Of a stretch of DNA of 64,000 nucleotides, positions 31,618-64,000 are shown piece after piece. The stretch is from positions 4,924 through 68,923 of the forward strand of contig JACOUI010000261.1 in NCBI GenBank assembly GCA_016177915.1. The letters run 5' to 3'. The stretch comes from Planctomycetia bacterium. Its GTDB lineage: Bacteria; Planctomycetota; Planctomycetia; Pirellulales; S012-138. The notes under the pieces are model-generated. The model saw nothing but the letters and a program-made list of their open reading frames with translations. It had not been told where the DNA came from and did no database searches. Within the stretch, counting starts at the first letter, position 1, and every line of letters begins with the position of its first letter. The position numbers were made by a program, and so were the translations under genes.

Positions 31618-31974
31618 ATGACCCACGACGACTTCATTGCCCAAATCGACCGCTTCCTCGACGGCGATCTCGATGTGATCGAGTGGCACGAGTTCCGCGA
31701 CCACATGAACACGTGTCGTGACTGCTCCCAACGGTTAGTGCAGCGACGCATCGAACTACTCGAAGACCGCGGCATTTTGGTGGCGCTCCTGGAACCGCAA
31801 CCCCAGCGATGCATCACGGCCGGAACGCTCACACGATGGCTCAAGGGCGAAATCCCCATGGAGCTTTCGCCGCGCGTCTCCAACCACCTGCGTAACTGTC
31901 GGTACTGCCACGACCATGCTGCGGAATTGGCAGCCCGACTGAAAAAGGACAACTACGCTAACGCCAACAGGTGA
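31618..31974 (+). CDS. tandem zf-HC2 (ZAS, anti-sigma-type) protein, copy A
   Basis: Two HxxxCxxC motifs in anti-sigma context: FLDGDLDVIEWHEFRDHMNTCRDCSQRL and WLKGEIPMELSPRVSNHLRNCRYCHDHAAEL. No TM segment. Confidence 0.75.
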   Translation: MTHDDFIAQIDRFLDGDLDVIEWHEFRDHMNTCRDCSQRLVQRRIELLEDRGILVALLEPQPQRCITAGTLTRWLKGEIPMELSPRVSNHLRNCRYCHDHAAELAARLKKDNYANANR

Positions 31975-33058: not shown

Positions 33059-33483
33059 CCCACGACGACTTCATTGCCCAAATCGACCGCTTCCTCGACG
33101 GCGATCTCGATGTGATCGAGTGGCACGAGTTCCGCGACCACATGAAAACGTGTCGTGAGTGCTCGCAACGGTTAGTGCAGCGGCGCATCGACCTGCTTGA
33201 CGAAGGCGGCCTTTTGGCGGCGCTCCTAGAGCCGCAACCCCAGCGATGCATCACGGCCGGAACGCTCACACGATGGCTCAAGGGCGAAATCCCCATGGAG
33301 CTTTCGCCGCGCGTCTCCAACCACCTGCGTAACTGTCGGTACTGCCACGACCATGCCGCCGAACTGGCAACCCGACTTTACCGACATGAAAATGACGTTC
33401 ACGCGGCCGAACCCCCGTATCGCATCCGTACTGCTGCTTTAGACGGCCCGATGGGCGAAGATGACGGTGACCAAGACGTCTGA
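33055..33483 (+). CDS. tandem zf-HC2 (ZAS, anti-sigma-type) protein, copy B
   Basis: ATGA overlap with the upstream stop. Same two HxxxCxxC motifs (DHMKTCRECS, NHLRNCRYCH). Longer acidic C-terminal tail. Confidence 0.75.
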   Translation: MTHDDFIAQIDRFLDGDLDVIEWHEFRDHMKTCRECSQRLVQRRIDLLDEGGLLAALLEPQPQRCITAGTLTRWLKGEIPMELSPRVSNHLRNCRYCHDHAAELATRLYRHENDVHAAEPPYRIRTAALDGPMGEDDGDQDV

Positions 33484-33543: not shown

Positions 33544-36500
33544 ATGTCCGAACCTACATGGACCACATACGATTCCTTTCAAAAGTGGGCTGGCGCCCAC
33601 CGAGTCGGCGTTTGGGCAACGAACATGAAGGCCCACTATGACGCCGGCGACCGTGCCGCCGCCAGCAGCTGGTGCGAACGACTCAGCGCCACCCTACAGA
33701 ATCACAAGATCCTGGCGGCGTTCCCGCCGTCGGTTTTGTACCTGTTGAGGTCGGCACTGCTGCGTGTAGGCACCGGCGCCCGACCCATTCTCACCCACGA
33801 TTTGCAGACCGCTGCGACCGCCATCGACGATAGCCTTCGTAGACTGACAGGAGGCAGCGACGGCGAGCCGCAATCGGCGTGGCCGCCGCTTGTCGCCGCA
33901 CAGGTGCTCGCGCATAACATTCTTTCAGGAACAGCGCCTGCCACTGCCATTCTCCGTCTCGGCCGCGCCTGCAGCCCGTCAGGTTCATGGAGGCGCACTC
34001 ACTGGAGCCGTATGCTACATGACGGTCCCGCGCTACAGTGTTGTGAGGATTTGCTGCCCGTCCTCCGATCACTAACCAGCACCACGTACGACCGCCTGGA
34101 AGCTATTGGCAAGCTGTCCGGCGTGATGGCTAACGTGCCGTATCGCAACCAAATCACCAACGCGCTCTATCACGCTGTCTTGTGTTGGCCGCTGCTCGTC
34201 GTGCTAGTTGAGCGCCCAGACCGGCCCCGTCTTATTAGCGGCGCCCTCAGTTTGCCCGTCATCATCGACGTGCGTTTCGGCCCGGCACCTTCCGATAAGA
34301 CTACCAACGATTCTGCTCCTTCCACCAGAGACCGTTGCATCGTACTCCCTACGGACGACGCCCTCAACGCGTTTCAACTGCATTTGCGAAAGGCGATGGA
34401 CGCTGCCAAAGACTTGTGGATGTCCAAACACCGCAACTACGGCCCGTTTTGCAAGGCCGTAGAGCGCGCCGACGTCGTGTTCGATTTCACAATCGCACGT
34501 TACGTCGACCCCGAAGCTTCAATTGAGGGCGGCAGTGCGGAGGCGTACTTCGCACAGGCTGTCCTCCACAGACTATTGGGCCGTCTCGGAACTCTTTCGA
34601 GCGTGGCCAGCGGTCACATTGATCGCGTCGCTGTATTGGATAACCTGCCAAAGGAACTTACTCCCAAAGGTCTCAAGCGCACAATGCAACTCGCCGTCCG
34701 CGGCTACGCCAACAAAAAGGAAACAGGGCCCCTGGAGGTTATCCCAGGAACGCGCAGCAACGCTGGCGAGAAGCGCCTTTTGTGGACGGATGTTTGGACC
34801 GGGCGCAAGGCCCTCCAATGGCGCCACGTACTATGGCAGCAGTCCACTGTCCCTGACTACCGAGATCAAGTCGGCTCGCTCTTCCGCCGGTACGGACACC
34901 TCTACCTCAGAAAAGCAGGGGGCAGCAAGGACAAACTCGAACTGGTTCACGCGAGCCACTTCTTCGAGCGCATCGTTTTACATCAAGCTACCGAACGCGA
35001 GCTGCTTAAGGACCAGCTGTGTGAACGCGGAATCAAGGACAACGCTGCACGGAAGATCGTCCGACAGTTCCACCCAGAACGCGTGCGCCTCCAACTGGCT
35101 GTTTACGACTGGCTGACCCAGAATCGCGATGCACGCGTCGCCCGCAACGGCGCCGCCTGGCTAGCAAAAGCCATCCGAGAGAATTTTCAGCCACCGACAG
35201 GGTTTCAGAGTGCGCCTGGCGCGCTGTCTACCTACCAATCGCCCACAGCCGAAGTCATCTCCGTTCCAACGCCGCAGCACATGGCGGACGTGATGCAGGT
35301 CGCGGGCTGGCGACGGCATCACTACATCCGCTGTCCCGACCTCATGTGGGCGTTCCATGAGCAATATAATGAAGCTCTTCCCGGCCTACTGCCTGCCGAA
35401 CCCGGATCAGCCGTCGACAGGGTCCTTGCCCAACTACAGGACAACACAGCACCCGTCCTTGAACTTCGCGCCGCGCCGCAAACGGTCCTTTCTGCGCTGT
35501 GGCACATCAACTATGAGCTCCGCGACCGCAGTGTAAAAGCCTTTTCCTGGGCCTGCCTCCGCCTTGCCAGAGACGAGATGGATGCTCGATTCTGGCAGAC
35601 GTTTTGGCGCGTGCTTGGCGCCCCTCTCGAAGTTGTCCAACAGTTCCTGCTCACTCCCACACCCGCCGCTGCCGCCACTCTCCTAGTCGAAGCCCTCAGC
35701 CACTTCTCACCAGCGCCAGCAGCTCCGGGCTACAGGGCACCAGAAGTAATTCTACTAATCGGAACCGACCGCTTCGCCGAGAGCTTGGCCAAGCACACCG
35801 GCCCGCTCAGCAGCCGCCCTTTGGCCCTTCCGTTCGTTCTCAAAGAACTTCGCTCCCATGGCGTTCCCTACTACACGCCGCTCGAGCGTCATCTTGGCCG
35901 CACCCGAATTATCTGTGTTCCGGAAGACCAACAGCTCACGCTCAATGCCGCACCCCCAGCTTGTGAGATCTCACAAGCTGACCGACTCTTCTTGCGCGCG
36001 GTACGTACCTTCCGCTGGGGCTTCACACAGCAGATGGCATCAATGATGCTCCAAGTCCTGGCGGACGATCAGCAACTACGTGCAGCGTGGCCGCGGCACT
36101 ACGCTTTGCGCGAGAACCTCAGTCGGCTGCGAGAAGAACGGCTTCTCCGATACGGCCAAGGGGTCTACCATTTGCCCCCCGACGTCCGCGATGCCCTAGG
36201 ACCGCCCCACGCCCCCCGCGACGACGCGCGACTCCATCTTGCGGCAGGCGTCGCCATTGCTCCCTACACGGCTCGTCGACCGGTCCCCTCGCTCGCCTTC
36301 GACTTGGCCTTCCTCCCTGAGAATGTCCACGAGGCCTCGCACCACTTTAGGACCGCCTTTTCCCTAGCTCAGGGCGTCGACGAACGTCTTGCAGACCACG
36401 CTCGAAACAACCTTCAGCATGTCTGTCGCTTCGTCGAGCTGCGCGACTGGGGCCTACAATCAGAGCTAACCAAGGGAAAGGACGCATTGCTCGACGCATG

Positions 36501-37245
36501 GGAACTCGGCAATGAACTTCTCGCAACACATGACCAGCACGGGACGCCGTGCCATCCCGCCCGTGTTCTCCAAGTTGCCCGAGCCGGAATGTCGTACCTC
36601 AAACAACTTCGTGGACCGGACCAAGACAACGACGCCCACGACGTTCGCTGTCGCATTGACGGCCTCTTCCGCCAAGCGCAAGCCGCCTGCGACCGGCCGG
36701 AATGGTCATCCGACCGAAATTCGAACCTTTTAGCCGTCCTCTCAACCTGGGCAACGTACTCGATGCAGAATTCCCCGCAACTCGTCTCGCAGATCCGTCA
36801 ACTCAATGACGATATCTGGAACCTCTTGAAGTCCAACACGCCCGCTTCCCTTGTATGGGGGGAGTGGTTCGAACTCGTGGCCGATCGTGAGACGAACCAC
36901 GCCGATGCCGCTGCGATCTACGCCCTGGCAATCGAAAACGTCCCCGCTTGGCACCAAAACTGGATCAAGGGTGTCGGAGCCGAAGTCCTCGGCGGCCTAA
37001 TCAACCCTCCAATCTGCAAAAAACTAACCGCGAAACCACCCGACCAAATCGCCCACATCCTCAAGAAAGCGGCGCTCGGCCTCAAGGATCTACAAACCGG
37101 GCACGCCAGCGACGTCGTTCACGATCGATGGCGTAGCGGCGCGGCTTTTTTCTTCTCCCATTGGAGCGCAAACACCAACGTTCAGCCCTTTCTCGCCCCC
37201 TATCGCTTTCTCCAGAGAAGCCAGCCGCGACCACGGTCCCCCTGA
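33544..37245 (+). CDS. 1233-aa protein of unknown function with Lon-like Ser/Lys signature and helical C-terminal third
   Basis: Uninterrupted ORF with ordinary composition. SIEGGSAEAYFAQAVLHRLLG (Ser331) and GGSKDKLELVHAS (Lys462/464) resemble Lon S16 GPSAG / GGxKEK blocks. No Walker A seen. Confidence 0.75.
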   Translation: MSEPTWTTYDSFQKWAGAHRVGVWATNMKAHYDAGDRAAASSWCERLSATLQNHKILAAFPPSVLYLLRSALLRVGTGARPILTHDLQTAATAIDDSLRRLTGGSDGEPQSAWPPLVAAQVLAHNILSGTAPATAILRLGRACSPSGSWRRTHWSRMLHDGPALQCCEDLLPVLRSLTSTTYDRLEAIGKLSGVMANVPYRNQITNALYHAVLCWPLLVVLVERPDRPRLISGALSLPVIIDVRFGPAPSDKTTNDSAPSTRDRCIVLPTDDALNAFQLHLRKAMDAAKDLWMSKHRNYGPFCKAVERADVVFDFTIARYVDPEASIEGGSAEAYFAQAVLHRLLGRLGTLSSVASGHIDRVAVLDNLPKELTPKGLKRTMQLAVRGYANKKETGPLEVIPGTRSNAGEKRLLWTDVWTGRKALQWRHVLWQQSTVPDYRDQVGSLFRRYGHLYLRKAGGSKDKLELVHASHFFERIVLHQATERELLKDQLCERGIKDNAARKIVRQFHPERVRLQLAVYDWLTQNRDARVARNGAAWLAKAIRENFQPPTGFQSAPGALSTYQSPTAEVISVPTPQHMADVMQVAGWRRHHYIRCPDLMWAFHEQYNEALPGLLPAEPGSAVDRVLAQLQDNTAPVLELRAAPQTVLSALWHINYELRDRSVKAFSWACLRLARDEMDARFWQTFWRVLGAPLEVVQQFLLTPTPAAAATLLVEALSHFSPAPAAPGYRAPEVILLIGTDRFAESLAKHTGPLSSRPLALPFVLKELRSHGVPYYTPLERHLGRTRIICVPEDQQLTLNAAPPACEISQADRLFLRAVRTFRWGFTQQMASMMLQVLADDQQLRAAWPRHYALRENLSRLREERLLRYGQGVYHLPPDVRDALGPPHAPRDDARLHLAAGVAIAPYTARRPVPSLAFDLAFLPENVHEASHHFRTAFSLAQGVDERLADHARNNLQHVCRFVELRDWGLQSELTKGKDALLDAWELGNELLATHDQHGTPCHPARVLQVARAGMSYLKQLRGPDQDNDAHDVRCRIDGLFRQAQAACDRPEWSSDRNSNLLAVLSTWATYSMQNSPQLVSQIRQLNDDIWNLLKSNTPASLVWGEWFELVADRETNHADAAAIYALAIENVPAWHQNWIKGVGAEVLGGLINPPICKKLTAKPPDQIAHILKKAALGLKDLQTGHASDVVHDRWRSGAAFFFSHWSANTNVQPFLAPYRFLQRSQPRPRSP

Positions 37246-46877: not shown

Positions 46878-47157
46878 CTAATCCACCAGCCAATCGACAA
46901 TCTCCCTCAGAGTCCCGTCAGTGACACGGATTCCGCTCTTCAGCTCGCCACTACCGTGCCACCCCGGCAGCGTCCCTCCACCTCGCCCAGACTGAGTACA
47001 GGAAAGGTTGCGACGACACCCCATGCGGGGGCGAGTGCATCCCATTCTCGAGCTCTGCCGAGTTCCGCAGCACTTTCATCCGCCGCCTAGACTGCATGAC
47101 GTAAGTTCCTCGTGCTTAGCTTCTTAGGACCGTCTACTATTCTTGGCGCTACGCTCT

Positions 47158-47172
47158 TGGCACGCCAGTTGC
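47158..47172 (+). promoter_or_regulatory. sigma-54 (-24/-12) promoter
   Basis: TGGCACG-CCAG-TTGC, i.e. GG and GC elements with exact consensus spacing, in the intergenic region upstream of the 47477 gene. Confidence 0.6.
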
Positions 47173-47476
47173 CATTGCCGCGCCCACGGGTCTTGGGTGA
47201 CAGGCGATTCGGAATGAAATGGGGGCCTGTGCCCGCGCGACGCCAATCAGCAGTAGGCCAGCGCGCCCGGGTTCGGGTAGCGCCCGCTCTGCGGCACCAG
47301 CCTGGACCATGCCGGGTAGCCGCGCGGCGCCCGAATTCGGCGGGGAGATTTGGTCCATGCCGGGGAAGAAGAAACGCCACAACGATATCCGGATCGAGCA
47401 CGGTTTCGCGGGCCTCGACGGGGTTAGCCGAACTCGCCAGCCCTCAATGAACAACCGACGCAACAGGAGATCAACT

Positions 47477-47935
47477 ATGAGCGCTTTCGATCAAGTCGAT
47501 CATCCCGACCACGGGCCAGAACCCGGCGGTCGCCCAAAAGAATCGCCCCTGACGAGGCTCATGTGGATCGTCGTTAGCGGCCTGACCATCGTCATGCTTG
47601 CGACGATTGTCAAGCTGGGCATCGGCCAACTCGGTCGTGAGCAGAATGCCGCCATGAACCCGATTGCGGGGCTGTGGACTGACGAAAAGGGCGGCGCCAT
47701 GTTCGTTGCTTCGGTTCCTGAGGGTCCGATCTGGCTCGTGAACTCGACGCTCGGGTATCGGCTTGATGTCAAGCATCGCACTGAGACAATCTACGAAGGT
47801 CGCCTCATTTGCGCCCGCCATCAAGCGGACATCGGCGTGTTTGTAATTGAGCGAGCCACCGACAACACACTCACCGCCATGCTCCTCCCCAACGGCAGAC
47901 CGCGCGTCACCTTGGTGTTGCGGAGGGCCGATTAG
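47477..47935 (+). CDS. small membrane-anchored hypothetical protein
   Basis: ATG 47477 after AGGAGA (alternative ATG 47357 after GGGGAGA). One TM helix (LMWIVVSGLTIVMLATIVKLGI) then a ~95-aa beta-rich-looking domain. Confidence 0.55.
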   Translation: MSAFDQVDHPDHGPEPGGRPKESPLTRLMWIVVSGLTIVMLATIVKLGIGQLGREQNAAMNPIAGLWTDEKGGAMFVASVPEGPIWLVNSTLGYRLDVKHRTETIYEGRLICARHQADIGVFVIERATDNTLTAMLLPNGRPRVTLVLRRAD

Positions 47936-48093: not shown

Positions 48094-49521
48094 TCAGGTG
48101 TTTCCAGTGCGCGGGGTGTCTGGGAATCGTTTCCGGTCAGTCCTCAGCAAACGTCCCGCGAGCGACGCGTTGCCACCGGCCTTCTCAAGGAATGCGCTCT
48201 TCACGATCTCTCTGACTTTCTCCCCGCACGCATTCGTGAAATCGTTCCACGCCGGGTACTTATTCCACGGTAGCTCATCACTGTTGAGGACTTCTTGGAT
48301 CATGCCGACAAGTTCGTTAAGTCGTCCGTCTACGAGCGTCGTCGTCGCGCTCGCGGACATGTCGTTCACCTCGTGCCCGAGATGATACTCGTAAACCGTA
48401 TCCCCGTGGGGAATCGCACGCCTGATCAAGCCATCCAGTTCGTGCAGGTTACCGGCCAATGTCCGGTCGCGCAAGAACTTCATTGCCTCGTCAGAGACGG
48501 AGGCTGTGCTCTCGTATTTCTTCAAGAGCGAGGCAACCAGTAGTTCGAGATCATGCCTCTTGCGTTCCTCGACGCTCGGCAAATGCACGACCGTACATTT
48601 CTCGAGCCTGTTGAAAAGGTCGCGCCTCAGCCTGCCCACTTCCAATTCGACCGTTAGGTTCCGATGTGTCGCGGCAATGATGCACCCCTCGAACCTTTTC
48701 CTCTCGGTCGAACCCACCCTGTTGAAACTGCCTTCGTTCAACAAGTCCAGCAGGCAGATTTGTTCGTCGAGACCCAATTCGCCGATCTCGTCGAGGAACA
48801 GTGTTCCTCCGTGAGCCTTCTCGATCCACCCCTCACGGTCGATTGCCCCCGTGAATGCTCCTTTGCACGTCCCGCAGAGATCGGAGAGAATGAACTCCCT
48901 TCGTACCTTTCCAATCTGGAAGTGGCAGAATCCACCTTTCCCCGCCGCAATCCGGAGCCTGTGGATGACCTCGGCGAGATAGCCCTTTCCTGTGCCGGAT
49001 GCTCCGAGCAAAAGGAAGTCCGGGCTGCCCCTCATCAGGGCACGGGCGACCCGGATGAGCCTCGCCACCATGCCAGGATGCCGCGTGTGCATTGCCGCCT
49101 TCAGCCGCGTGATATTCGCGCGGAGATCGCTATTCACGGCGTCGCGAATGGCCTGGACGTAACTGCCCGCTTCCGGCGGCCAGCGGATGCAAGCGACGAC
49201 TGGGTATTGGATGACCTTGGCGTAGACATGGGGTAGCGCGTCGTCGAGAATCGCGACGGGCAAGGGCATCGAATCGTCTCCCCCGAGGTCGGAAACTAGC
49301 TGGGGACCAGAGGGCTCCCCCCCTAAACCCCAGTCGACGACTAGGGCGTCGAACTGCCCAGATTTGGGACCGCGAATCAGCTCACGGGCAGCCGCGCCGC
49401 TTGAGCAAAACTGCAGCCTGGCAGCGAGACCACCCGCCGCGATGAGCTCCCTGTGCTTCTGGCGGTAGTCCTCATTGTCGGCCTTACCGGACACGATCAG
49501 AAGGTTGTACTGGTGGGACAT
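48094..49521 (-). CDS. sigma-54-dependent enhancer-binding protein (REC-like N-term, AAA+, Fis HTH)
   Basis: LLLGASGTGKGYLA, GAFTGA loop (CKGAFTGAIDREG), GGTLFLDEIGEL, RRDLFNRL. C-terminal HTH GGNASLAGRLLRTDRKRF. Confidence 0.9.
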   Translation of the reverse strand: MSHQYNLLIVSGKADNEDYRQKHRELIAAGGLAARLQFCSSGAAARELIRGPKSGQFDALVVDWGLGGEPSGPQLVSDLGGDDSMPLPVAILDDALPHVYAKVIQYPVVACIRWPPEAGSYVQAIRDAVNSDLRANITRLKAAMHTRHPGMVARLIRVARALMRGSPDFLLLGASGTGKGYLAEVIHRLRIAAGKGGFCHFQIGKVRREFILSDLCGTCKGAFTGAIDREGWIEKAHGGTLFLDEIGELGLDEQICLLDLLNEGSFNRVGSTERKRFEGCIIAATHRNLTVELEVGRLRRDLFNRLEKCTVVHLPSVEERKRHDLELLVASLLKKYESTASVSDEAMKFLRDRTLAGNLHELDGLIRRAIPHGDTVYEYHLGHEVNDMSASATTTLVDGRLNELVGMIQEVLNSDELPWNKYPAWNDFTNACGEKVREIVKSAFLEKAGGNASLAGRLLRTDRKRFPDTPRTGNT

Positions 49522-50749
49522 CGCTGCTCACCGGAATGTAGAAGATAGTCTTGCAACCCCTTGCGGTGTTCTCCCTCCGAATTCCGCCGCCCATGTCATG
49601 CGCGAGACGTTTGGCCAGTTCCAAGGCGCGGTCCTCCGGTCTGTCGCCCAGACCGGCACCAACTCTTCCTCGCTCCTCGCACTCGACACTCACCGCGACT
49701 GTACCGTTGTCCCGTCTCAACGTTTGAATCCAGAGCCTAGTGCCGCGCCGCGCCCTGTCAATGCCCGAGAAGACGACTGCGTCGATGACCGCGAAAAGAT
49801 CTTCGGGGAACGTGCAGACCTCGTACTCGCCGTCCGATGAGACCTCGAGCAGCAACCGTTTGTAGGCGATTCCTGGCCCCAGGCGGCCGATTACCTTCTC
49901 GACTACGCTCCCAATCAAGATAACGTTTCGCTGCGGACCATACCACAACTTCCGGCGGTAAGCCTCGTTGCAGCACTCAAGCGTGGAGAACGCAGCACGG
50001 CGGACAGCTTCCACTCCCTCAGCAAGCGCGTGCTCCTGCTTCCCTTCACCTGGGAACTGGCCCAGTCCGAGTTGCTGTTCCAGTCTTTGGGCGCAGTCCA
50101 AAACCTTCTCGATCCCATCGGAGGCGGCCCGTCCCATCTTGCTCGCCACCTCCGCCTGACTCTCCGCGCACATCCATGACTTCATCTGCTGCAGCAAGTA
50201 CTGGCGCTTGAACCTTCGCCATGCCTGCCGCGACTTTTGCTGACCGAGACGATAGGCACGGCAAACGGCCGCAAACATCTCGTCGGTACGTGAGGGCTTC
50301 GGGACGAAGTCCGCCGCGCCACCACGAAATGTTCGGATGATGGTCTGGGGATTGCCATGCTGCGTGTAGATGACCACGGCCCCGCAGGCCACATCGCTCA
50401 GATCGCTCGCCGCCCTGAGGACGTCGAGCCCCACCTGAGGATCCTCTTTGTCCTGCGGATCGGAGGGATTCGAGCGACTGAGACCCAGGTCGAGGGTCAC
50501 GACATCATATGGCCGCTTCTTCTCTGCGGCTTCACGAAGGAAAGCGACGGCCTCGGCGCCGGTGACGGCCGGCTGCACTTCGAAGCTGCTGATACCGTAC
50601 TTCTCGACGTAGGAGTGTGGCGGTTCCTCGAACGCGTAACACAGGTCCCGCCTTTCGGAGTCCAGGTCCTCCACCAGCAACAGACGCGGTTTGGCACTCA
50701 CGACGGCCCTCCCTTTCGATTTCCCGACACGGCTCGTCCACCAACCCAT
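49484..50749 (-). CDS. response-regulator receiver fused to HATPase-like domain
   Basis: REC: PRLLLVEDLDSER...YDVVTLDLGLS...VVIYTQHG...GAADFVPKP. The C-terminal region ...LWIQTLRRDNGTVAVSVECEERG...LAHDMGGGIRREN...IFYIPV resembles an HK ATP-binding domain. Confidence 0.75.
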   Translation of the reverse strand: MGWWTSRVGKSKGRAVVSAKPRLLLVEDLDSERRDLCYAFEEPPHSYVEKYGISSFEVQPAVTGAEAVAFLREAAEKKRPYDVVTLDLGLSRSNPSDPQDKEDPQVGLDVLRAASDLSDVACGAVVIYTQHGNPQTIIRTFRGGAADFVPKPSRTDEMFAAVCRAYRLGQQKSRQAWRRFKRQYLLQQMKSWMCAESQAEVASKMGRAASDGIEKVLDCAQRLEQQLGLGQFPGEGKQEHALAEGVEAVRRAAFSTLECCNEAYRRKLWYGPQRNVILIGSVVEKVIGRLGPGIAYKRLLLEVSSDGEYEVCTFPEDLFAVIDAVVFSGIDRARRGTRLWIQTLRRDNGTVAVSVECEERGRVGAGLGDRPEDRALELAKRLAHDMGGGIRRENTARGCKTIFYIPVSSDVPPVQPSDRVR

Positions 50750-50764
50750 CCCGGCGGAAAGCGC

Positions 50765-53700
50765 TCACGACAAGCAAGTGGGACGAGCGGGTCTCAGGGG
50801 CGAGAGTACCTCGACCTCCCTGATCGGTAGGGTTATGCGCACGCGGGTTCCTTCGCTTGGGCACGAGTCAATTTCAAGCTGTCCCCCGTGGCTCTCGCAG
50901 TAGAGCCGAGACAGGAACAACCCCATCCCAGTCCGCACGACGGTGTCGAGCGGCTGCTCGCCCCGGAGGATCCGCTCCACATCTGCCGCACTGATCCCCG
51001 ACCCGGTGTCGGCGACCAGAATCTCACACCGGTTGAGCTGAGCCCGGTAGCGGATGACGAGCTCGAGACGCCCCCCCTGGGGCATCGAACGGATTGCATT
51101 ATCCACGACGTTCTCGAAGCACTCGAGTATCTGCCCTCCATGCACCCACGCTTTCGCCCGGTCGAGCGTACGAACCACGTCGATCCGCTGGCGCTCGAGG
51201 TCACTTGCATGGGAGGCTACCACCTCGTTGAGGAGCGCGTCCAAAGCACACTCGCCCCGCCGCACGGTCGCGAGGTGCTGTCCACTATCGCGCGCCTTAC
51301 GGAAGAGGTCGATGAGTCGGCCGACGTCGTCAATTGCCCTCTTGAGTTCCTCACTCTCGTCCGTCTCTCGGGACTTTCGCAGACAGATATTGAGCCACGC
51401 CTTAATGGAGGTGACGAGCTTCGCCTGCTCGTGGGCCGTCTTCGCGAGGTGGGCGGCTACACCGTTCAGAGCACGGTTCGCCTGCTGCACGGCGCGCTGC
51501 GTCTGCCCCCGACGACGGTCGATGACGCTCGCGAGCGCGTTCGCGAGTTCCAAGAGCTTTTCTTCGTCGTGGAGGGGTAGTGGGTCGCGGTCGCCACAAG
51601 GCTGTCTGCCCCTCCAGTGCTGGTCGATCGCCGCGACTACCTGGCCGCCGACCACGACAGGCAGGCAGACACGTTCAACGATGTAATCGGCCCTCACAGC
51701 CGTCGGATGCCAGCGATCGGTCGGCGGCCGGCGCTTCTCGACTATCCGCTTCGAGCGGAAGGCGTGCCAGAGGAGATCGTCGGGGGAATCGACCGTCAGA
51801 GGCCTGTCTGCGTCGTGGCAACCGGGGCGCTTCGAATACGCGACGCGACGTAGCAGGGGGAGTTCAGAGTCAGGCATGTAGATTGCGCAGTGGCGGAGTT
51901 GGTACTCCTCAATGACCTTCCGCGTAAATGCATCCAGCAAAACGTCTTCCGGCTCGTTTTCCACCTCAAGGAGCGCGCGCATCACTGCATCCCGCCTTCT
52001 TAGATCGCCAATTTCCCACAAGTCGCGGTCCGAGTTTCGCAGCCCGTAGACGTAGGCGGACAAATCCGCGGCGACCTTACGCAGGTGTTCGCGGTCAGCC
52101 GTCGCAAACCCCGGTTCGTGACCCTCGATCGGCAGCTTTCGCAGACGGTGGTTTGTGACGATCGCGAGCGGGCACGGGCCTTGTGCAAACCAGAGTGGCA
52201 GCGTGATGACCTCGCACGTATAATCGTCACCGAGTGTGAAGCCGAACATCTCCGCTCCGTACTTGAGGAGCGTCGTCTGCCCGCGGTCCCGTTTGAACAC
52301 GCGAAGGTCATCGATGTAGTGCGGCTCACGGTCCATCGCGAGTGTTCCCGTCATCCCCTCGCCGAGTTCGTAGAAAGCCGCGTTGAGCCAGCGCTTATCG
52401 GCCCACCCTGCCTCGGCTCGGAGGACAAAACGTTTCTGCATGTCGTCCCAGAGGAAGAAAGAGGTGACACGAGCTGAGGCTGCCTGCCGAGCCCTTTCAG
52501 CGTGGTGCCTCAAAGCCGCGTACAGGTGAAAACCCCCGCCGATAGCTGGCTTGATGTCGCGCAGAAAACGCTCGGCCTTTTTCTGGTGGACATGGGCGAT
52601 GAGGTCCGAGAGCCGCGTGCCGATGTCGTTCAGGAGAGCCAAACGGTGCTGTGTGAACGACCACCCACCCGCGAAGTCTATCGCCACTACGCCTACAGGC
52701 GAGCCTCCCGGCCGGACGATCGGAAGAATCGCAAGGGAGCCGATTTCGCGAAGGGCCGTCGTGAACTCGGAGGAAGCGAGTCGATCGGACAGCACCTGCA
52801 CCGGACTCGTGCGGTCGCGTGGCCACAGCTCGTTGATGAGCACCCTTCGGTTGTTTCGGAAGCTCAAGGCCGACGGGGCGTCCGAGTCGTGCACATCGAT
52901 CTCACGCAGGTGACGCTGCCCTGCATCGTAAAACGATCCCCACCCCCCATCGATCAGCCGCAGCTTGTTCGTCTCCGGGTCGAGCAGCCGGATGTGACAC
53001 CCGGCCCCCATTGCCTTCGCCACCGCCACCACCACGTGCGAGGCCGCCTCCTCGAACGTGCAGCACTTCTCCCGTGCCTCCACGCAGGCCAAATCGAGAG
53101 TCCGCAGCGGAGTGAGCTCTTCAGTTTGGACAGCGCGGTTTATCATCGCAGATGCCCACGCGCCGAGCGCATTAAGTGCCGACTGCTGCTCCGCACTGAG
53201 GACTGGCAGCCCACGCAGATCCCCAAGATCAATCTGAAGGATTCCGAGGGTGCGCTGCTCGTCAGTGCCGCTCCCATCTCGACTCCTATGCCGATGCTCG
53301 AGCAGGGGAAGGACGTAGAAGCTGATGACGTTCCCGGCTCGCGCCGCCTCGTGATCGCAGTGCGGATTGGTCGTTGCGTCCATCACGTATTGCGCTTCCT
53401 GGCTCCGCGCGACCTCAGCGAGGATGTCTTCGCCGCCGAACTCCCGACGGGTAAGCGGCAGGACCTTTTGCCACCGGCCCCCAAGCGCCTCCTGGGCGAC
53501 AATCCACTGCTTCGAATCGTCGTCCTGCAGAACCATTGAGACCATCGCTCCTTGGTACCCGGCAGTGGCCACGCACTTCAGAACTTCTCCGATCGCTGCA
53601 TCAAGTGAGGGGGCTGTGGCCGCCTCGCCTGTGTGTTTCCTGATGGCCTCCGACGCCAGACGGAGTTTGAAGCTCGGGCACATGTCATCGGCGAGCGTGA

Positions 53701-55090
53701 GTTCGGTCAAACTCCAGTTGCCGAACACCGGTCGGCCGAAATGGTCGATGCCAATCTCCCCATCCATGTAACAACCGACTCGGACAGTACCCGAGAACTG
53801 CTGCTCGACGAGATCGAGCGCCTCCGGGATGTCGAAGCCGAGTCGGTGCCGCTCCCGGTAACGGGCGACGCAGCCAATAAGAAGAGCTCCCACACGAGTG
53901 CTCGGCTGACTGAGGCTGCGGCCGATCCAATCATGCACCCTTGTAACCGACTGCTGGGTCTTCCCCGGGTGGGGCCGAACAATATGAAGAGTCGCTCCAG
54001 CCGGGATTCGGCGCGGCACGCTGATGACAGAACCTGTCTGCTTCGGCTGCGCAACCACCCGGTCGCCGTAAGGGGTCTCCATGCAGAAGAGGTCCGTCGG
54101 CCCGAGTTCCTTCATGAGCTCCTCCGGTGACTTCTCCCCCCACAGCGCCGAGATCACATGTTCGTGGTCGCTCACCTCCTTCACATGGATGCTCCGCAGC
54201 GCTGGGCCGAGACCGTGGTTCAACCCCATGCCGTAGGTGACATCGGTGTCCACGAGCGCGACAACAGCGGCCCGGGCGAAGACCTGCCCCTCAGCGAACT
54301 GCGCCCCCATCCCCGGCTGAAGGCCTCCGCTCGCCACCCCGCCGAACGTGTGGATCCGGCCGTGCAGTTGGTTCCGTAACTCGGTGAAGATCTCCGGAGC
54401 CCTGTACCAGCGAGGGTCCCCATCCGCCCCGTAGCCCGGCAGGAACGTCAGGACAAACCGGTTACCCCGTGGCTGGCTTGGGAATCCGCCACAGAGGCCA
54501 AGGTGTTCAAGCATGCCAGTGACGGCCCCCACAGGGTCGTCTTGAGCACCGAGCCCCACGGCAACCCGGACTGCCATGAACCTGGATGCGAACCCCAAGA
54601 GCATCGCCCCGCGCTCGTGACAGCCATGATCGAAGCAGCAGACAGCGACTGAAGCACCGATAACAGGCACCTCGCCCAAGCCCATTTCTCGCAGGTTCGC
54701 GTGAACGGCTTGCAAGAGATCCTCGTATGGTTGAAAGCTTGGCGTGACGAGAAGCAAGTAAAGACGGGCCGGGAAAGGCTCCTCGTCCCGAGCACTGCCG
54801 ACAATCTGCTGGACAAGGGCAGCGCCATCCCTGCTGAGCGATCCGGACGGGCTCTCCAACGTTCCCAAAGTGACCCGTAAGTACGTGCTGCGTGGCCCGC
54901 CACTATCGCTAGACCCTGACCCGCCTGCTCTCATCTCGTCATGAACCTTGCGCGGCACGATTGTGATCTCCTCGTAAGCGTTCGGCAACTGATCGACAAG
55001 ATCGGGGCCCGGTTTCAAGGTGCCGTAGACGACGCCGTTCTTGGCGATCCTCCGACCGTCGAAGTCCTCCGCCTTTCCCGCGGCCACCAT
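50765..55090 (-). CDS. large cytoplasmic sensor histidine kinase (FIST-like N-terminus, multiple GAF-like modules, HisKA/HATPase_c)
   Basis: No TM segments noticed. C-terminal GGRLELVIRY...ILVADTGSGISAADVERI...GMGLFLSRLYCESHGGQLEIDSCPSEGTRVRITLP is a canonical HATPase_c. Upstream domain calls are by pattern only. Confidence 0.8.
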   Translation of the reverse strand: MVAAGKAEDFDGRRIAKNGVVYGTLKPGPDLVDQLPNAYEEITIVPRKVHDEMRAGGSGSSDSGGPRSTYLRVTLGTLESPSGSLSRDGAALVQQIVGSARDEEPFPARLYLLLVTPSFQPYEDLLQAVHANLREMGLGEVPVIGASVAVCCFDHGCHERGAMLLGFASRFMAVRVAVGLGAQDDPVGAVTGMLEHLGLCGGFPSQPRGNRFVLTFLPGYGADGDPRWYRAPEIFTELRNQLHGRIHTFGGVASGGLQPGMGAQFAEGQVFARAAVVALVDTDVTYGMGLNHGLGPALRSIHVKEVSDHEHVISALWGEKSPEELMKELGPTDLFCMETPYGDRVVAQPKQTGSVISVPRRIPAGATLHIVRPHPGKTQQSVTRVHDWIGRSLSQPSTRVGALLIGCVARYRERHRLGFDIPEALDLVEQQFSGTVRVGCYMDGEIGIDHFGRPVFGNWSLTELTLADDMCPSFKLRLASEAIRKHTGEAATAPSLDAAIGEVLKCVATAGYQGAMVSMVLQDDDSKQWIVAQEALGGRWQKVLPLTRREFGGEDILAEVARSQEAQYVMDATTNPHCDHEAARAGNVISFYVLPLLEHRHRSRDGSGTDEQRTLGILQIDLGDLRGLPVLSAEQQSALNALGAWASAMINRAVQTEELTPLRTLDLACVEAREKCCTFEEAASHVVVAVAKAMGAGCHIRLLDPETNKLRLIDGGWGSFYDAGQRHLREIDVHDSDAPSALSFRNNRRVLINELWPRDRTSPVQVLSDRLASSEFTTALREIGSLAILPIVRPGGSPVGVVAIDFAGGWSFTQHRLALLNDIGTRLSDLIAHVHQKKAERFLRDIKPAIGGGFHLYAALRHHAERARQAASARVTSFFLWDDMQKRFVLRAEAGWADKRWLNAAFYELGEGMTGTLAMDREPHYIDDLRVFKRDRGQTTLLKYGAEMFGFTLGDDYTCEVITLPLWFAQGPCPLAIVTNHRLRKLPIEGHEPGFATADREHLRKVAADLSAYVYGLRNSDRDLWEIGDLRRRDAVMRALLEVENEPEDVLLDAFTRKVIEEYQLRHCAIYMPDSELPLLRRVAYSKRPGCHDADRPLTVDSPDDLLWHAFRSKRIVEKRRPPTDRWHPTAVRADYIVERVCLPVVVGGQVVAAIDQHWRGRQPCGDRDPLPLHDEEKLLELANALASVIDRRRGQTQRAVQQANRALNGVAAHLAKTAHEQAKLVTSIKAWLNICLRKSRETDESEELKRAIDDVGRLIDLFRKARDSGQHLATVRRGECALDALLNEVVASHASDLERQRIDVVRTLDRAKAWVHGGQILECFENVVDNAIRSMPQGGRLELVIRYRAQLNRCEILVADTGSGISAADVERILRGEQPLDTVVRTGMGLFLSRLYCESHGGQLEIDSCPSEGTRVRITLPIREVEVLSPLRPARPTCLS

Positions 55091-55311
55091 GGTTCGAGCC
55101 GCTCAATTACCCGCCCCAGCTTGTAAAGCAACTCCCGCACCGATCTAGCCACAATCGACTGGTTTTACGGACGCCTGGGTACAAGCTTCGTCTTACCAAC
55201 TGCTTATGGCCTTCTTCCATTCATTGTGAGACGACGCTCGCCAGCCGTACTCAGTTGTCTCTCCTGGGGCGTTTATACCCCAGCGAGGGGAAACGCCACC
55301 CCAACGGACTT

Positions 55312-55466
55312 AGAGGCTGTCCGAGAAGATTCCCCGTGTTTTCTCGGAGTTTTTGACGGTAGCGTCGCAGCGATAGCGTGCGGTTTCTGCGTATCCAGCC
55401 GAAATCTCACGGACGCTGTCATTGAGAATCGCCGGAAAACACGGGGAATCTTCTCGGACAGCCTCT
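55312..55466. repeat. 32-bp perfect inverted repeat with 91-nt spacer
   Basis: AGAGGCTGTCCGAGAAGATTCCCCGTGTTTTC (55312-55343) is the exact reverse complement of 55435-55466. Confidence 0.95.
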
Positions 55467-55524
55467 TAGACGGGAGCATGAACGTTCCTTATTGTTTCGA
55501 CCTATTACCTATTGTTGGCGGCTC

Positions 55525-56788: not shown

Positions 56789-56832
56789 TTTGGGACCAGA
56801 AGGTCGGGAGTTCGAATCTCCCCGCCCCGACT
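56789..56832 (+). repeat. att site: second 44-bp copy of tRNA-Pro(UGG) 3' part (right junction)
   Basis: Identical to 7303-7346. Upstream sequence is not tRNA-like. The downstream flank carries a hairpin + T run. Confidence 0.85.
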
Positions 56833-60368: not shown

Positions 60369-61928
60369 ATGCGCCACGTGTCGCCTTTCGCGCGGCTGCT
60401 GTTGGTTCTCCTCCTTCTTGCCGGCGGGCTGATGTTTGACGAATCGATCCTGGCCGACGACGCGGTGATCGGTCCCGGCTACGACCGGCCGGGGCGGAAC
60501 GCGCACCAGAGCCGGTCGGTCGTGATCGCCAAGCACGGGATGGTGGCCACGGACCATCCGCTGGCCACGCTGGCGGGACTGGACGTTCTGCGGCAGGGAG
60601 GGAACGCCGCCGACGCGGCGATCGCGGCCAACGCGGTCAACGCGCTCGTCGAGCCGATGAGCTGCGGCATCGGCGGCGATTTGTTCGTCATCTATTACGA
60701 CGCCAAGACCAAGAAGCTCTACGGACTGAACGCCAGCGGCCGCAGCCCGTATACGCTCACGGGCGAGGTGTTCGCGAAGCGGGGTCTGAAGCAGATTCCG
60801 ACGGCGGGCGTGCTGGCGTGGTCGGTGCCGGGGTGCGTTTCGGGCTGGGAGGAGCTGCGCGGGCGGTTCGGGTCGATGAGTTTCGAGCAGCTCCTGGCAC
60901 CGGCGATTACGCACGCGGAAGAGGGTTTTCCGGTGACGGAGGTCGTCGCGGCCTACTGGCGGGCGGCGGAGCGGACGCTCGCGCGGCATCCGGACTCGGC
61001 GAAGACGTATCTCGTCGACGGCCGTGCGCCGCGGGCGGGCGATATTTTTCGCAATCCGTACCTGGCCCGGAGCTATCGCGCGATCGCCAAGGACGGGGCG
61101 GCGGGTTTTTACAAGGGGAGCATCGCCCGGCAGATCGCGGCCGCCAGCGCGTCGCTCGAAGGCTTCATGACGGAGAAGGACCTAGCCGACCACACGGCCG
61201 ATTGGGTCGAGCCGGTGAGCACGAATTATCGTGGTTACGACGTGTGGGAATTGCCGCCGAACGGGCAGGGGATCGCGGCCCTGCAGATGCTGAACATCTT
61301 GGAGGGTTATGACCTGAAGTCGATGGGGCACAACTCGGCCCAGCACCTGCACGTTTTCATCGAGGCCAAGAAGCTGGCGTTTGCCGACCGGGCAAGGTTC
61401 TATGCCGATCCGGCGGGCCAGAAGCTGCCGATCGCCGAGTTGATCTCGAAGCCCTATGCGGAGACGCGGCGGAAGCTGATCGACCCTGGCAAGGCGGCGG
61501 AGGACGTGCCGCACGGCGACCCGAAGCTGGCGCACGGCGACACGATCTACTTGTGCGTCGTCGACAAGGACCGCAACTGCTGCTCGCTGATCCAGAGCAA
61601 CTATTTCGGGTTTGGGTCGGGGATTGTGGCGGGCGACACGGGTTTTGCCATGCAGAACCGGGGCAACCTGTTTTCGCTCGACGACGACCATCCCAACCGC
61701 CTGGAGCCGCACAAGCGGCCGTTCCACACGATCATCCCGGCGATGGTCACGAAGGACGACCGGCCGGTGTTTCCGTTCGGCGTGATGGGGGGCGACTTTC
61801 AGCCGCAGGGGCACGTGCAGGTGCTGTGCAACATCATCGACTTCGGGATGAACGTGCTCGACTGGGAGCGGGGGACGCTCAACGGGGCAACGGAGCCGAG
61901 GAAGGACGGGTGTGCGTTGGGGTATTGA
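60369..61928 (+). CDS. ggt: gamma-glutamyltransferase family protein (possibly with internal C-terminal deletion)
   Basis: HGMVATDHPLATLAGLDVLRQGGNAADAAIA..., catalytic-Thr region HGDTIYLCVVD, FGFGSG, GGDFQPQGH, terminal EPRKDGCALGY. Confidence 0.85.
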   Translation: MRHVSPFARLLLVLLLLAGGLMFDESILADDAVIGPGYDRPGRNAHQSRSVVIAKHGMVATDHPLATLAGLDVLRQGGNAADAAIAANAVNALVEPMSCGIGGDLFVIYYDAKTKKLYGLNASGRSPYTLTGEVFAKRGLKQIPTAGVLAWSVPGCVSGWEELRGRFGSMSFEQLLAPAITHAEEGFPVTEVVAAYWRAAERTLARHPDSAKTYLVDGRAPRAGDIFRNPYLARSYRAIAKDGAAGFYKGSIARQIAAASASLEGFMTEKDLADHTADWVEPVSTNYRGYDVWELPPNGQGIAALQMLNILEGYDLKSMGHNSAQHLHVFIEAKKLAFADRARFYADPAGQKLPIAELISKPYAETRRKLIDPGKAAEDVPHGDPKLAHGDTIYLCVVDKDRNCCSLIQSNYFGFGSGIVAGDTGFAMQNRGNLFSLDDDHPNRLEPHKRPFHTIIPAMVTKDDRPVFPFGVMGGDFQPQGHVQVLCNIIDFGMNVLDWERGTLNGATEPRKDGCALGY

Positions 61929-62040
61929 GGGGGCGAGGGGTGAGGGTTGAGGAATGATGGTTACTCCAACTGCCGCCAGACAGAGAGGGGAGAGGGGGCG
62001 AGAGGGAGAGGGGGAGAGCGGAGACGAGGGAAGAGCTTCG

Positions 62041-62269
62041 ATGTACAGCAAAGCACAAATCCTTGAGGAGATCAGGCGGACTGCTGTTGCCAACGGCGGC
62101 AAGCCCCTGGGGCGTGCTCGTTTTCAAGCCGAAACAGGCATCAAAGAGTCGGATTGGTCCGGACGCCGCTGCGCAGCTTGAAAAGCTGTTTGACGATGGC
62201 TGGCAGTTCGCGCTCCGCGACGACCCGCTCTTCCTGCCGCCGTTGGACCGCCAAGTGCTTCCCGGGTAG
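62041..62269 (+). pseudogene. mosaic of gene remnants (N-terminal fragment MYSKAQILEEIRRTAVANGG... joined to a truncated DUF885-like N-terminus)
   Basis: AAQLEKLFDDGWQFALRDDPLF (62165-62230) duplicates the N-terminus of the intact DUF885 gene at 63150-63215. Reading frames are broken and short. Confidence 0.4.
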
Positions 62270-62297
62270 TATGAGAGCCGTGCGAGAGAACCTACCC

Positions 62298-62528
62298 ATG
62301 AATTGGACCCGCATTACTGTCAACCCGAGCCAGATGGGCGGTGTGCCGTGCATTCGCGTCCTGCGGATTCCCGTGGCCACCGTCGTCGGCATGGTGGCGG
62401 AGGGAATGACCACCGACGAAATCCTGCGCGCCTATCCCGACCTGGTTATCGAAGACATCCGTGAAGCACTGGCCTACGCGGCCGAGGCGGTTCGGGAGCG
62501 TGAGCTGCCCCTGGTGACGGCGCCATGA
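62298..62528 (+). CDS. DUF433 antitoxin-like protein
   Basis: [56 protein letters not shown]. Confidence 0.8.
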
Positions 62529-62902
62529 AGTTCCTCGTCGACAACGCGCTGTCGCCGGCCGTGGCCGAGTTGCTTCGAAAGGCCGGCCACGACGCTGTTC
62601 ACGTCCGCGACTATGGTCTGGCCGCTGCCGACGATACGGTGATCTTTGAGCGTGCGGCGCAAGAGGACCGGGTCATTGTCTCCGCGGACACCGATTTCGG
62701 CACGCTGCTGGCCGTGCGGCAGGAGTCAAAACCCTCAGTGGTCCTCTTCCGCGGGGCAACGACGCGCCGACCTGACCGCCAGGCTGCGCTGCTGCTAGCA
62801 AACTTACCGGGCATCGAGGGGGCCTTGAAACAAGGGTCCGTGGTCGTGATCGAACCGCACCGCATTCGCGTCCGCCCGCTGCCCATCCTGCCCGGCCCCT
62901 GA
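62525..62902 (+). CDS. DUF5615 (Mut7-C/PIN-like) toxin-like protein
   Basis: ATGA overlap with the DUF433 gene. [32 protein letters not shown]...[14 protein letters not shown]. Confidence 0.8.
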
Positions 62903-63051
62903 GGAATGATGGTTACTCCGTGTGCCGCCACATAGGGAGGGGGAGAGGGGGTGATGGAGCCGAGGAAGGACGGGTGTGCGTTGGGGTATTGAGGGGGGAG
63001 GAGGCTAGAGGCTGGAGACGACAGACATGAATGAAAAGGAGTTGACCTTCG

Positions 63052-64000
63052 CATGATGACGTGTCGCAGCAATGTCCTCCGGTCGGTTTGCGCCCTTGTT
63101 GTTGCAGTCGGGTCTCTTATGTCCGCACCCCTCCCCGCCCAAGATGCCGCCGCGCAGCTTCAAAAGCTGTTTGACGACTCGTGGCAGTTCGCGATGCGCG
63201 AAGACCCGCTCTTTGCCACGCACACCGGCGACGCGCGGTACAACGACCTCTTGCCCAGCGAGAGCGCGGCCGACGAGCTGCGCAGGACGGAGAAGGCGCG
63301 GGAGTTCTTGAAGCGGCTCAAGGCCATCGACCGGGCCGCCCTGCCGCCGGGCGACCAGGTGAACTACGACGTCTTCGGCTGGCTGGCCGAGAGCAATATC
63401 GCCGAGTCGGAGTTTCAGACCTACTTGATGCCGATCACGAACCGCTCGGGCTTTCACGTCCAGTTTGCGGAACTGTATCGCGACGTGCCGCTGCGGACCG
63501 TGAAAGACTACGAGAATTACATCGCCCGGCTGCGCGGCTTTAAGAAGTACGCCGAGCAGCACGCCGCGCTGCTGCGCGAGGGGATCAAGCAGAAGATGGT
63601 GCTGCCGGCGGTGGTGCTGGTGGGCATCGAGGAATCCGTCGAGGCGCACATTGTCGACGATCCGGAGAAGAGCGTCCTTTACAAGGCCTTCGCCGATTTT
63701 CCGGACACGTTTTCCAAGGAAGACTGCCAGCGGCTGCGCGACGAGGGGAAGAAGGCGATCGCCGAGTCGATTGTGCCCGGCTATCGCGAGTTCCTGGCGT
63801 TCTTGACCAAGGAGTACCTTCCGGCGGCGCGGGACGACATTTCGGCCTCGACGCTCCCCCGCGGCCGCGAGTTTTACCGCCACCGCGTGCGGCGGTTCAC
63901 GACGCTCGACATCTCGCCGGAGGAAGTCCACGAGATCGGCATGCGGGAGGTGAAGCGCATCCGGGCGGAGATGGACGAGGTCCGCAAGAAGGCGAAGTTC
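63052..64000 (+). CDS. DUF885-family protein with signal peptide (partial, continues beyond window end)
   Basis: My own translation from ATG 63052 (SD AAAAGGAG): MMTCRSNVLRSVCALVVAVGSLMSAPLPAQDAAAQLQKLFDDSWQFAMREDPLFATHTGDARYND... Open to the window end, so absent from the ORF track. Confidence 0.8.

Follow-up and report, generated by a model that had tools for sequence, protein, structure and literature searches.

Pseudo-histidine kinases can signal by binding receivers or other kinases, as DivL does with DivK~P and RetS with GacS. Detocs is a two-component-like anti-phage system, and the TCAD9 domain takes its name from the VMAP/vWA-MoxR ternary conflict systems. In this work, we analyze a signaling operon carried by an integrative element in a 64,000-nt stretch of DNA from a Planctomycetia bacterium (GenBank contig JACOUI010000261.1, positions 4,924 to 68,923 of the forward strand), referred to below as the window. 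The operon encodes a sensor histidine kinase, a middle protein called P2 here, and a sigma-54 activator, that is, a bacterial enhancer-binding protein (bEBP). We read it as a trimmed, element-borne copy of a signaling operon conserved in bacteria of the Planctomycetes-Verrucomicrobia-Chlamydiae (PVC) type, in which the kinase would phosphorylate P2 and P2 would act on the activator by contact, with effect at a local promoter; to this reading we give an even chance.

The prototype of a receiver (Rec)-controlled histidine kinase is LvrB (PDB 8vc9), a member of the Leptospira LvrA-LvrB-LvrC phosphorelay (PMC13269768). LvrB uses a phosphorylatable aspartate, D56, and a histidine, H161, and phosphorylation of its Rec domain liberates its catalytic and ATP-binding (CA) domains (PMC13269768). 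FIST sensors of the NosP type are coupled to histidine kinases, as in NosP-NahK and in a nitric oxide (NO)-sensing system of Burkholderia (PMC12570481). The eLife paper on ternary conflict systems makes no mention of FIST, sigma-54 or histidine-kinase partners of the kind described below. The parts of the operon are of known kinds, namely FIST-linked kinases, proteins composed of Rec, dimerization and histidine phosphotransfer (DHp) and CA domains, and activators of the NtrC class. In the literature, no description was found of this cassette, nor of the conserved grouping in it of a Rec-controlled kinase homologue that lacks the His, an activator with an Asp-less receiver, and a TCAD9 protein.

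Operon layout and the sensor kinase

The operon comprises three genes, given here from its 5' end:

50765-55090, minus strand: kinase gene, 1441 aa, cytoplasmic sensor histidine kinase
49484..50701, minus strand: P2 gene, 405 aa; its open reading frame (ORF) can be extended to ATG 50749 (421 aa, 49484-50749)
48094-49521, minus strand: activator gene, 475 aa, sigma-54 activator (bEBP)

All three ORFs carry the signature of coding sequence in their GC content at third codon positions (GC3), which bears out the three minus-strand genes proposed in a preliminary description of this DNA. The 38-nt overlap between the P2 and activator genes, also reported there, stands as well, while the reported 15-nt gap between the kinase and P2 genes is valid solely with the longest P2 ORF. 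Three lines of evidence place the P2 start at GTG 50701, so that the gap is 63 nt: the onset of homology, the 405-aa gene called by both NCBI and Logan, and a Shine-Dalgarno sequence (AAGGGAGG) that is strong. The operon bears the locus tags HYS13_17750 and HYS13_17745 on a 72,472-bp contig of a Planctomycetia metagenome-assembled genome. In exact look-ups, the kinase sequence retrieved nothing except a 6.4-kb Logan contig whose sequence is that of the window, and the activator sequence returned no contigs.

The kinase is built, in order, of FIST_N, FIST_C, GAF-type modules, DHp, and HATPase_c. In Pfam, FIST_N was matched at residues 113-308 (58.5 bits against a cut-off of 23.2), GAF_2 at 679-831 in two stretches, GAF at 1049-1188, and HATPase_c at 1321-1424 (63.9 bits); FIST_C, at 334-447, scored 25.5 bits, under its cut-off of 28.5. 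The domain calls of the preliminary description were right, with FIST_C below the cut-off. Pfam HisKA gave no match in the kinase. The DHp domain contains an H-box, TAHEQAKLVTSI, with His1220, and the ATP-binding region contains the N-box residue N1331 and the G1 box residues D1361, G1363, and G1365, all of them near-invariant when 32 sequences of the family are aligned. Residues 1194-1427 are covered by the NCBIfam AtoS model, with a score far under its own cut-off. On these motifs, the kinase looks active, and it passes as a classical sensor histidine kinase by its H-box and its ATP-binding N, G1, and G2 boxes. No segment has transmembrane-like hydrophobicity (the top value over 19 residues is 1.8), in agreement with the cytoplasmic location suggested earlier. 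Its closest relative shares 43% identity, over the N-terminus of the kinase.

P2, a putative receiver-controlled pseudo-histidine kinase

The receiver of P2 is matched weakly by Pfam (27.2 bits against a cut-off of 30.2), and nothing else is recognized there; HATPase_c is undetected in the window protein. In an AlphaFold2 (AF2) model (pLDDT 79), the receiver is followed by a long helical hairpin and then by an alpha/beta domain, and the top Foldseek matches of this model are the LvrB chains of 8vc9 (E 2.9e-16), followed by DivL, RetS, and HK853. P2 thus has the Rec-DHp-CA architecture. Its receiver residues E11, D12, D71, and K135 are invariant in the 8-10 loci aligned, and the motif LDL is present in the receiver in 10 of 10. 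In the window cassette, the receiver of P2 is the only canonical one.

The remainder of the protein is different. When the H-box of P2 was compared by alignment with that of its nearest outside relatives, which are genuine REC-HisKA-HATPase kinases, the position of the histidine of HELKAPL was found to be occupied by R/R/R/G/T/Q/R/A/A/R across the 10 loci, and no conserved histidine occurs elsewhere in the helical region. Only two of the 10 (L002 and L007) keep the N-box asparagine, conservation is also lost in the G1 box, and in the window protein most of the ATP lid is deleted. P2 shares the architecture of LvrB and fails both catalytic tests of that type, i.e., a phosphorylatable DHp histidine and a competent CA domain (N-box Asn, DxGxG). 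We therefore read it as a putative receiver-controlled pseudo-histidine kinase, with a canonical receiver and a degenerate CA-like domain, as judged from the alignments and the model.

These features bear on the three-tier phosphorelay put forward in the preliminary description. In a true relay similar to LvrA-LvrB-LvrC, the kinase would phosphorylate the receiver of P2, and P2 would autophosphorylate and pass its phosphoryl group to Asp62 of the activator. The architecture of P2 and the catalytic character of its closest outside relatives speak for such a scheme; the substituted H-box, the unconserved N-box and G1 box, and the missing ATP lid speak against it. The activator contributes to both sides, as it has an aspartate at the acceptor position in the window, whereas eight of nine aligned activators lack it and the window copy is without the receiver Lys and Thr/Ser. 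Taken together, we regard a true relay as very improbable; only the step from the kinase to the receiver of P2 looks canonical.

The sigma-54 activator

The central domain of the activator is matched by Sigma54_activat (residues 152-311, E 1.7e-39) and contains the Walker A motif GASGTGKG, the Walker B motif LFLDEIG, and an intact GAFTGA loop, as had been stated previously for this bEBP. Each of the nine activators aligned keeps Walker A, Walker B, and a GAFTGA-type loop. PADLOC assigned the activator to RtcR-type models via the AAA+ core alone.

The N-terminal receiver-like domain is atypical. Among the nine, eight members have L, A, G, or M at the acceptor position, and an invariant Trp comes next; in the window copy, the position is occupied by Asp62. 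Missing from this copy are the beta5 Lys (the sequence reads IRWPP) and the beta4 Thr/Ser, and its acidic pocket is broken by an insertion. By the combination of Asp, Thr/Ser, and Lys that marks a phosphorylatable receiver, the domain does not qualify. At the C-terminus, the helix-turn-helix (HTH) region aligns with Fis-type helices; in the window copy, prolines come after GGNASLAGRLLRTDRKRF, leaving a shortened recognition helix. Pfam HTH_8 gave no match in the window activator, and in the activator of L001 it scored 19.2 bits, under the cut-off of 22.

The promoter at 47158 and its predicted output

The predicted target of the activator and the gene in front of which it lies are as follows:

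47158-47172, plus strand: sigma-54 promoter, TGGCAC-N5-TTGC (-24 element TGGCAC, -12 element TTGC), predicted activator target
47185..47476, plus strand: leader of about 290 nt, from the promoter to the membrane-protein gene
47477..47935, plus strand: membrane-protein gene, predicted output, 152 aa, convergent with the operon

The site at 47158 is the sole exact consensus match in the 64 kb, against 0.13 expected from shuffles. It is intergenic, lies 922 bp from the stop codon of the activator gene, and faces the next gene. The leader is probably non-coding: its GC content by codon position (0.57/0.69/0.73, against 0.63/0.45/0.71 in the gene) is not coding-like, and it showed neither an Rfam family nor an excess of structure over shuffles (z = +1.8). 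Most likely, the gene starts at ATG 47477, which an AGGAG box precedes by 7 nt. A start at 47219 is less likely; the 258 nt between it and ATG 47477 lack a coding codon-position profile.

The 152-aa protein, which the preliminary description called a gated membrane protein, is a single-pass protein whose one hydrophobic helix spans about residues 28-50. No family was found for it in Pfam, NCBIfam, PADLOC, or PLSDB, its AF2 single-sequence model has low confidence (pLDDT 57), and it has no homology to the small proteins adjoining other cassettes. Between its gene and the 3' end of the operon there is a 158-nt gap with no evident terminator, so antisense read-through into the operon would be possible.

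Two other elements were noted in this region. A mirror-image near-consensus sigma-54 site, TGGCACGGTAGTGGC, lies at 46947-46961 on the minus strand, 196 nt to the left of the 47158 site; it reads, in antisense, into the TraD-like gene at its 3' end and has TGGC in place of TTGC at -12. Upstream of the promoter, 11 nt are directly repeated at 46984 and 47084; the possibility that they bind the activator was considered and rejected, the repeat being too short to be told from chance.

The cassette in related bacteria

Word-indexed searches had pointed to near-orphans. When HMMER was run exhaustively with a profile of the kinase, it recovered 176 clusters at E<=1e-30, mostly of 1350-1440 aa, with members labelled Planctomycetes and Verrucomicrobia. 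A search with a 5-sequence kinase alignment led to six metagenome loci, half of them cut at the kinase, and a profile search of genome contigs with the P2 alignment returned an unrelated receiver alone. The loci of the relatives are designated by L numbers.

Kinase and P2 occur together in every locus recovered with enough flank. The order kinase-P2-activator is found in L001, L007, L011, L012, L014, L015, L016, L017/L018, and L019. In L011, L014, L015, L016, L017/L018, and L019 it is followed by a TCAD9 gene, and likewise in L001, where a small receiver-like ORF is inserted; the sequence of L012 stops after the activator. L007 continues with Lactamase_B. In L002, which is without the activator, kinase and P2 are followed by TCAD9 and by an RDD-bearing Ser/Thr kinase. 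In L003, the partner is fused and degenerate, and an integrase and an excisionase-like gene lie beside the kinase. A TCAD9 gene is thus present in eight related loci (L001, L002, L011, L014, L015, L016, L017, and L019), and none was detected in the window by tblastn and the family HMM, where the best match (E 0.022) was an unrelated 93-aa ORF. Either this usual fourth gene of the family was lost from the window copy, or it was never there. The TCAD9 proteins (e.g., L019:16780-18528) carry invariant GxSGxxV, K, HGDLNxxN, and IDF motifs, from which their APH/protein-kinase-like active site is apparently intact; their profile has no sequence relative in the PDB.

The genes beside the cassette differ by locus and include the membrane protein, Lactamase_B, the Ser/Thr kinase with RDD, and a cyclase-like protein. 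The last is a 202-aa ORF of L007 (10639-11247) with the look of a class III nucleotide cyclase, judged by eye. Also judged by eye, a 59-aa C-terminal fragment of a tyrosine integrase lies in L016 (11199-11378, minus strand). The small ORFs upstream of the relatives' kinases show no homology among them.

Sigma-54 sites were sought upstream of the relatives' kinases, keeping GG/GC, with at most one mismatch, in sense orientation and within 800 nt. Such sites are present in four of 12 loci, at 190 nt in L012, 70 nt in L014, and about 750 nt in L015 and L016, against about 0.015 expected per locus (binomial p ~2.5e-5). In L011, two exact sites within tandem 57-nt units (9440-9600, minus strand) front an ORF of 246 aa, which runs convergently toward the operon's 3' end, a geometry as in the window. 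As -24/-12 sites adjoin the cassette in L011, L012, L014, L015, and L016, the activators appear to act locally, which gives comparative support to the link between activator and 47158 promoter proposed earlier. Judging from these positions, the activators appear usually to act on their own TCAD9-ending operon and, in the window and in L011, on a convergent gene.

The gene order is the same in the relatives, no genes beyond the cassette are common to their loci and the window, no relative was found among IMG/VR viral contigs, and none of the kinase or of the 152-aa protein among PLSDB plasmids. On this comparison, the cassette is therefore a chromosomal module that the element acquired in three-gene form. 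The preliminary description considered it unusual cargo for an element and suggested that it might sense infection, an idea against which conserved occurrence in relatives without the element would count. Such occurrence was looked for and largely found: the cassette is a conserved operon on contigs without element genes, and in L019 it adjoins dnaX-ybaB-recR on a 1.34-Mb contig.

Proposed mechanism

In the reading that we favor, the soluble kinase would sense an intracellular ligand through its FIST and GAF modules and autophosphorylate on His1220. It would then hand the phosphoryl group to Asp71 of P2, as the linkage in one operon and the conservation of the residues suggest. There the phosphate would stop, since P2, with a DHp lacking histidine and a CA domain lacking ATP-binding residues, should be unable to pass it on. 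Phosphorylation of the receiver probably rearranges the helical and CA-like module of P2, as in LvrB, and this might alter its contact with the receiver-like domain of the activator. The AAA+ activator, once freed or assembled, would open the sigma-54 holoenzyme complex at 47158, and the promoter would drive the 152-aa gene, reading convergently into the 3' end of the operon; proximity and the arrangement in relatives point to this last link.

A bolder form of this idea, which we consider less likely than not, is that of a "half-dead" two-component pair. The kinase would phosphorylate the receiver of a pseudo-kinase whose His-less DHp/CA module docks on the Asp-less receiver of the activator, and perhaps on the TCAD9 kinase, so that phosphorylation is converted into a contact switch; the window element would have rewired this switch so that its output is a small membrane protein, which might be an effector of conflict or of exclusion. 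A pseudo-kinase/pseudo-receiver pairing conserved over about 176 clusters of poorly studied PVC bacteria would show phosphotransfer partners repurposed as contact-based adaptors. The family also gives TCAD9 its first genomic context outside the ternary conflict systems.

Several observations weigh against the mechanism of contact between P2 and activator at a local promoter. No good sigma-54 site was found near the cassette in L019, L001, L002, L003, and L007, and the sites of L015 and L016 are distant from the kinase with no clear ORF between. The rpoN gene of the host lies outside the window. The proline-shortened helix and the missing Pfam match make DNA binding by the window activator uncertain, and with Asp62 kept, this activator could still be phosphorylated directly by the kinase. 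The window copy is also the most divergent one, with its ATP-lid deletion in P2, its odd receiver and HTH, and no TCAD9, and it could be decaying cargo, though its three ORFs are intact.

Under that last explanation, a captured chromosomal operon has lost TCAD9 and is drifting, and the sigma-54 site and the small gene are unrelated to it or vestigially linked. We consider this unlikely. The aberrations just listed (the receiver without Lys/Thr and the proline-broken HTH among them) and the absence of a close relative, the best being the 43% match over the kinase N-terminus, are what such decay would leave. Against it stand three intact ORFs of about 2,300 codons with GC3 bias, a start led by a Shine-Dalgarno sequence, and a translationally coupled overlap, together with the preserved catalytic motifs of the kinase and AAA+ core of the activator. 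Moreover, an exact sigma-54 site near the activator gene has a chance of about 0.008 within +/-2 kb, and the same convergent geometry recurs in L011.

The mobile element and its other cargo

The element is bounded by two copies of a perfect 44-bp repeat, 49,486 bp apart, and a further repeat lies upstream of the kinase gene:

7303-7346, plus strand: left att, 44-bp direct repeat, similar to the 3' end of a tRNA or tmRNA, with a tyrosine integrase immediately to its right
56789-56832, plus strand: right att, 44-bp direct repeat; GC content changes from about 0.59 to about 0.70 just past it
55309-55366 / 55412-55469, no strand assigned: inverted repeat, 58 nt, with a perfect core of about 35 nt

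With flanking repeats and a site-specific recombinase, the 49.5-kb region qualifies as an integrative element. No intact tRNA or tmRNA was found at either att repeat or elsewhere in the window, so both copies are partial. The left end carries the tyrosine integrase; the element also carries a Dam methylase, a full-length candidate helicase of the PDC-S28 type, a Ppl-like ATPase with a Toprim protein and a Type I restriction-modification (R-M) system. Its transfer and maintenance genes encode ParA, two Replic_Relax proteins, and a TraD/TrwB-like coupling protein. The preliminary description of an att-bounded element with defense genes is confirmed.

The inverted repeat sits within the 435 nt that separate a Replic_Relax gene from the start of the kinase gene, where it may serve as a terminator, as a regulatory site or operator, or as an oriT-like site; no consensus sigma-54 site is present in the region of the repeat. 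The immediate neighbors of the operon are transfer genes, with the coupling protein on one side and Replic_Relax on the other, and this position, together with the repeat and the direction of the mirror site TGGCACGGTAGTGGC into the 3' end of the coupling-protein gene, would fit a cascade that reads the state of the host and tunes transfer or maintenance genes, for instance by sigma-54-driven antisense transcription into the coupling-protein gene. Such control of the element's life cycle seems to us highly unlikely, as the mirror site deviates at -12, one match of this kind is within chance, and in its relatives the cassette shows no linkage to transfer genes.

A different role would be that of an infection or conflict sensor, in which phage attack or distress of the host would switch on the small membrane protein, and this protein would act either by damaging the membrane (abortive infection) or by exclusion. 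The Type I R-M system, the PDC-S28 candidate helicase, and the Ppl-like ATPase in the same element lend it some credit, as do the fourth gene of the family, with its domain named from NTP-dependent conflict systems, the variation of the adjoining outputs between loci, and the integrase and excisionase-like gene beside the L003 kinase. In PADLOC, on the other hand, neither the kinase nor P2 nor the 152-aa protein has a model or gave a defense-system match, and the activator was matched through its generic AAA+ core only; none of the four proteins was given a specific family by PADLOC or NCBIfam. No member of the family is present in IMG/VR or PLSDB, the surroundings of most relatives are those of an ordinary chromosome, the direct neighbors of the window operon are transfer genes and not defense genes, and sigma-54 transcription following a two-step cascade would be slow for an abortive response. 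The defense-sensor reading is thus possible but currently weak, and we consider it rather unlikely.

The idea of infection sensing is tempered by the finding that the cascade is a borrowed chromosomal module; the only feature of it specific to the element is its output, the small membrane protein predicted to be driven by sigma-54. As a whole, the first interpretation of this region holds for the domains, the cytoplasmic kinase, the element setting, and the promoter link, and gives way for the phosphorelay and for unusual cargo and infection sensing, in view of the P2 motifs and the chromosomal relatives.

Further features of the window were recorded. To the left of 7303, a Type III-like methylase, a SIR2-like protein, and an int-alpA RNA are found; there is probably a second island there, which may be in tandem, at the same site. 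The int-alpA RNA (Rfam RF02996; 5783-5848, plus strand; 39.4 bits against a gathering threshold of 35.8) lies directly upstream of an unassigned 421-aa ORF (5864-7129) and the integrase. Within the element, the candidate helicase is an 836-aa protein (10683-13193, minus strand) and a full-length match to PADLOC PDC-S28 (E 3e-240). At 17648-21903 on the minus strand, a 976-aa SMC/ABC-type ATPase with a partial Ppl match is preceded by a 373-aa Toprim/DnaG-like protein that matches models linked to defense reverse transcriptases; as a pair, the two are unclassified. ARAGORN called a 97-nt tRNA-Val overlapping the Toprim ORF (20766-20862, minus strand), which is probably a false positive, since it is without Rfam support. 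A 300-nt direct repeat with 95% identity (31617-31916 and 33054-33353) represents a duplicated zf-HC2 (anti-sigma-like) gene region, and its copies precede an RRM-domain protein (32060-33058) and a family-less 1233-aa protein (33544-37245). Repeats of 43-71 nt with 86-94% identity (61884-61997, 62900-62997, 62162-62232, and 63143-63213) flank a DUF433/PIN toxin-antitoxin pair at 62154-62902 and suggest a duplicated or inserted cassette.

Comparison with known systems

Detocs and the ternary conflict systems provide precedent for phosphotransfer cascades and TCAD9 proteins in conflict, and defense genes are present in the window element. They differ from the system described here in that PADLOC, which covers defense systems, gave no match to the window kinase or P2, and in that the window contains no vWA, MoxR, VMAP, or TCAD9 gene.

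Systems of the NosP-NahK type resemble the window cassette in that a FIST module, of which FIST_N passes and FIST_C misses the Pfam cut-off in the window, is the cytoplasmic input, predicted in our case, to histidine-kinase signaling. In the window, unlike in those systems, FIST is fused to the kinase, and about 700 aa of GAF-type modules lie between.

The NtrB-NtrC, AtoS-AtoC, and ZraS-ZraR pairs likewise place a kinase with an AtoS/ZraS-like DHp-CA region in an operon with a GAFTGA activator composed of receiver, AAA+, and Fis-type HTH domains, the HTH being putative in the window, and the target, predicted in our case, is a local -24/-12 promoter. Here, by contrast, an extra pseudo-kinase stands between kinase and activator, the receiver of the activator lacks Asp in most members or Lys/Thr in the window, and scores stay well short of every NCBIfam equivalog cut-off.

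The LvrA-LvrB-LvrC system has the same succession of an upstream sensor kinase, a Rec-DHp-CA protein of about 380-400 aa, and then a protein of transcription control. The output here is a sigma-54 activator instead of an anti-sigma factor, and LvrB, with D56, H161, and an active CA domain, differs from P2, which keeps the receiver aspartate, lacks the histidine, and has degenerate ATP motifs.

With DivL and RetS, P2 shares a histidine kinase-like DHp-CA fold that lacks a working phospho-histidine and serves, or in P2 would serve, as a protein-protein module, and both are among its structural matches. Neither of them is known to be under such control by an N-terminal receiver or paired with a sigma-54 activator, the two features that set P2 apart from these pseudo-histidine kinases.

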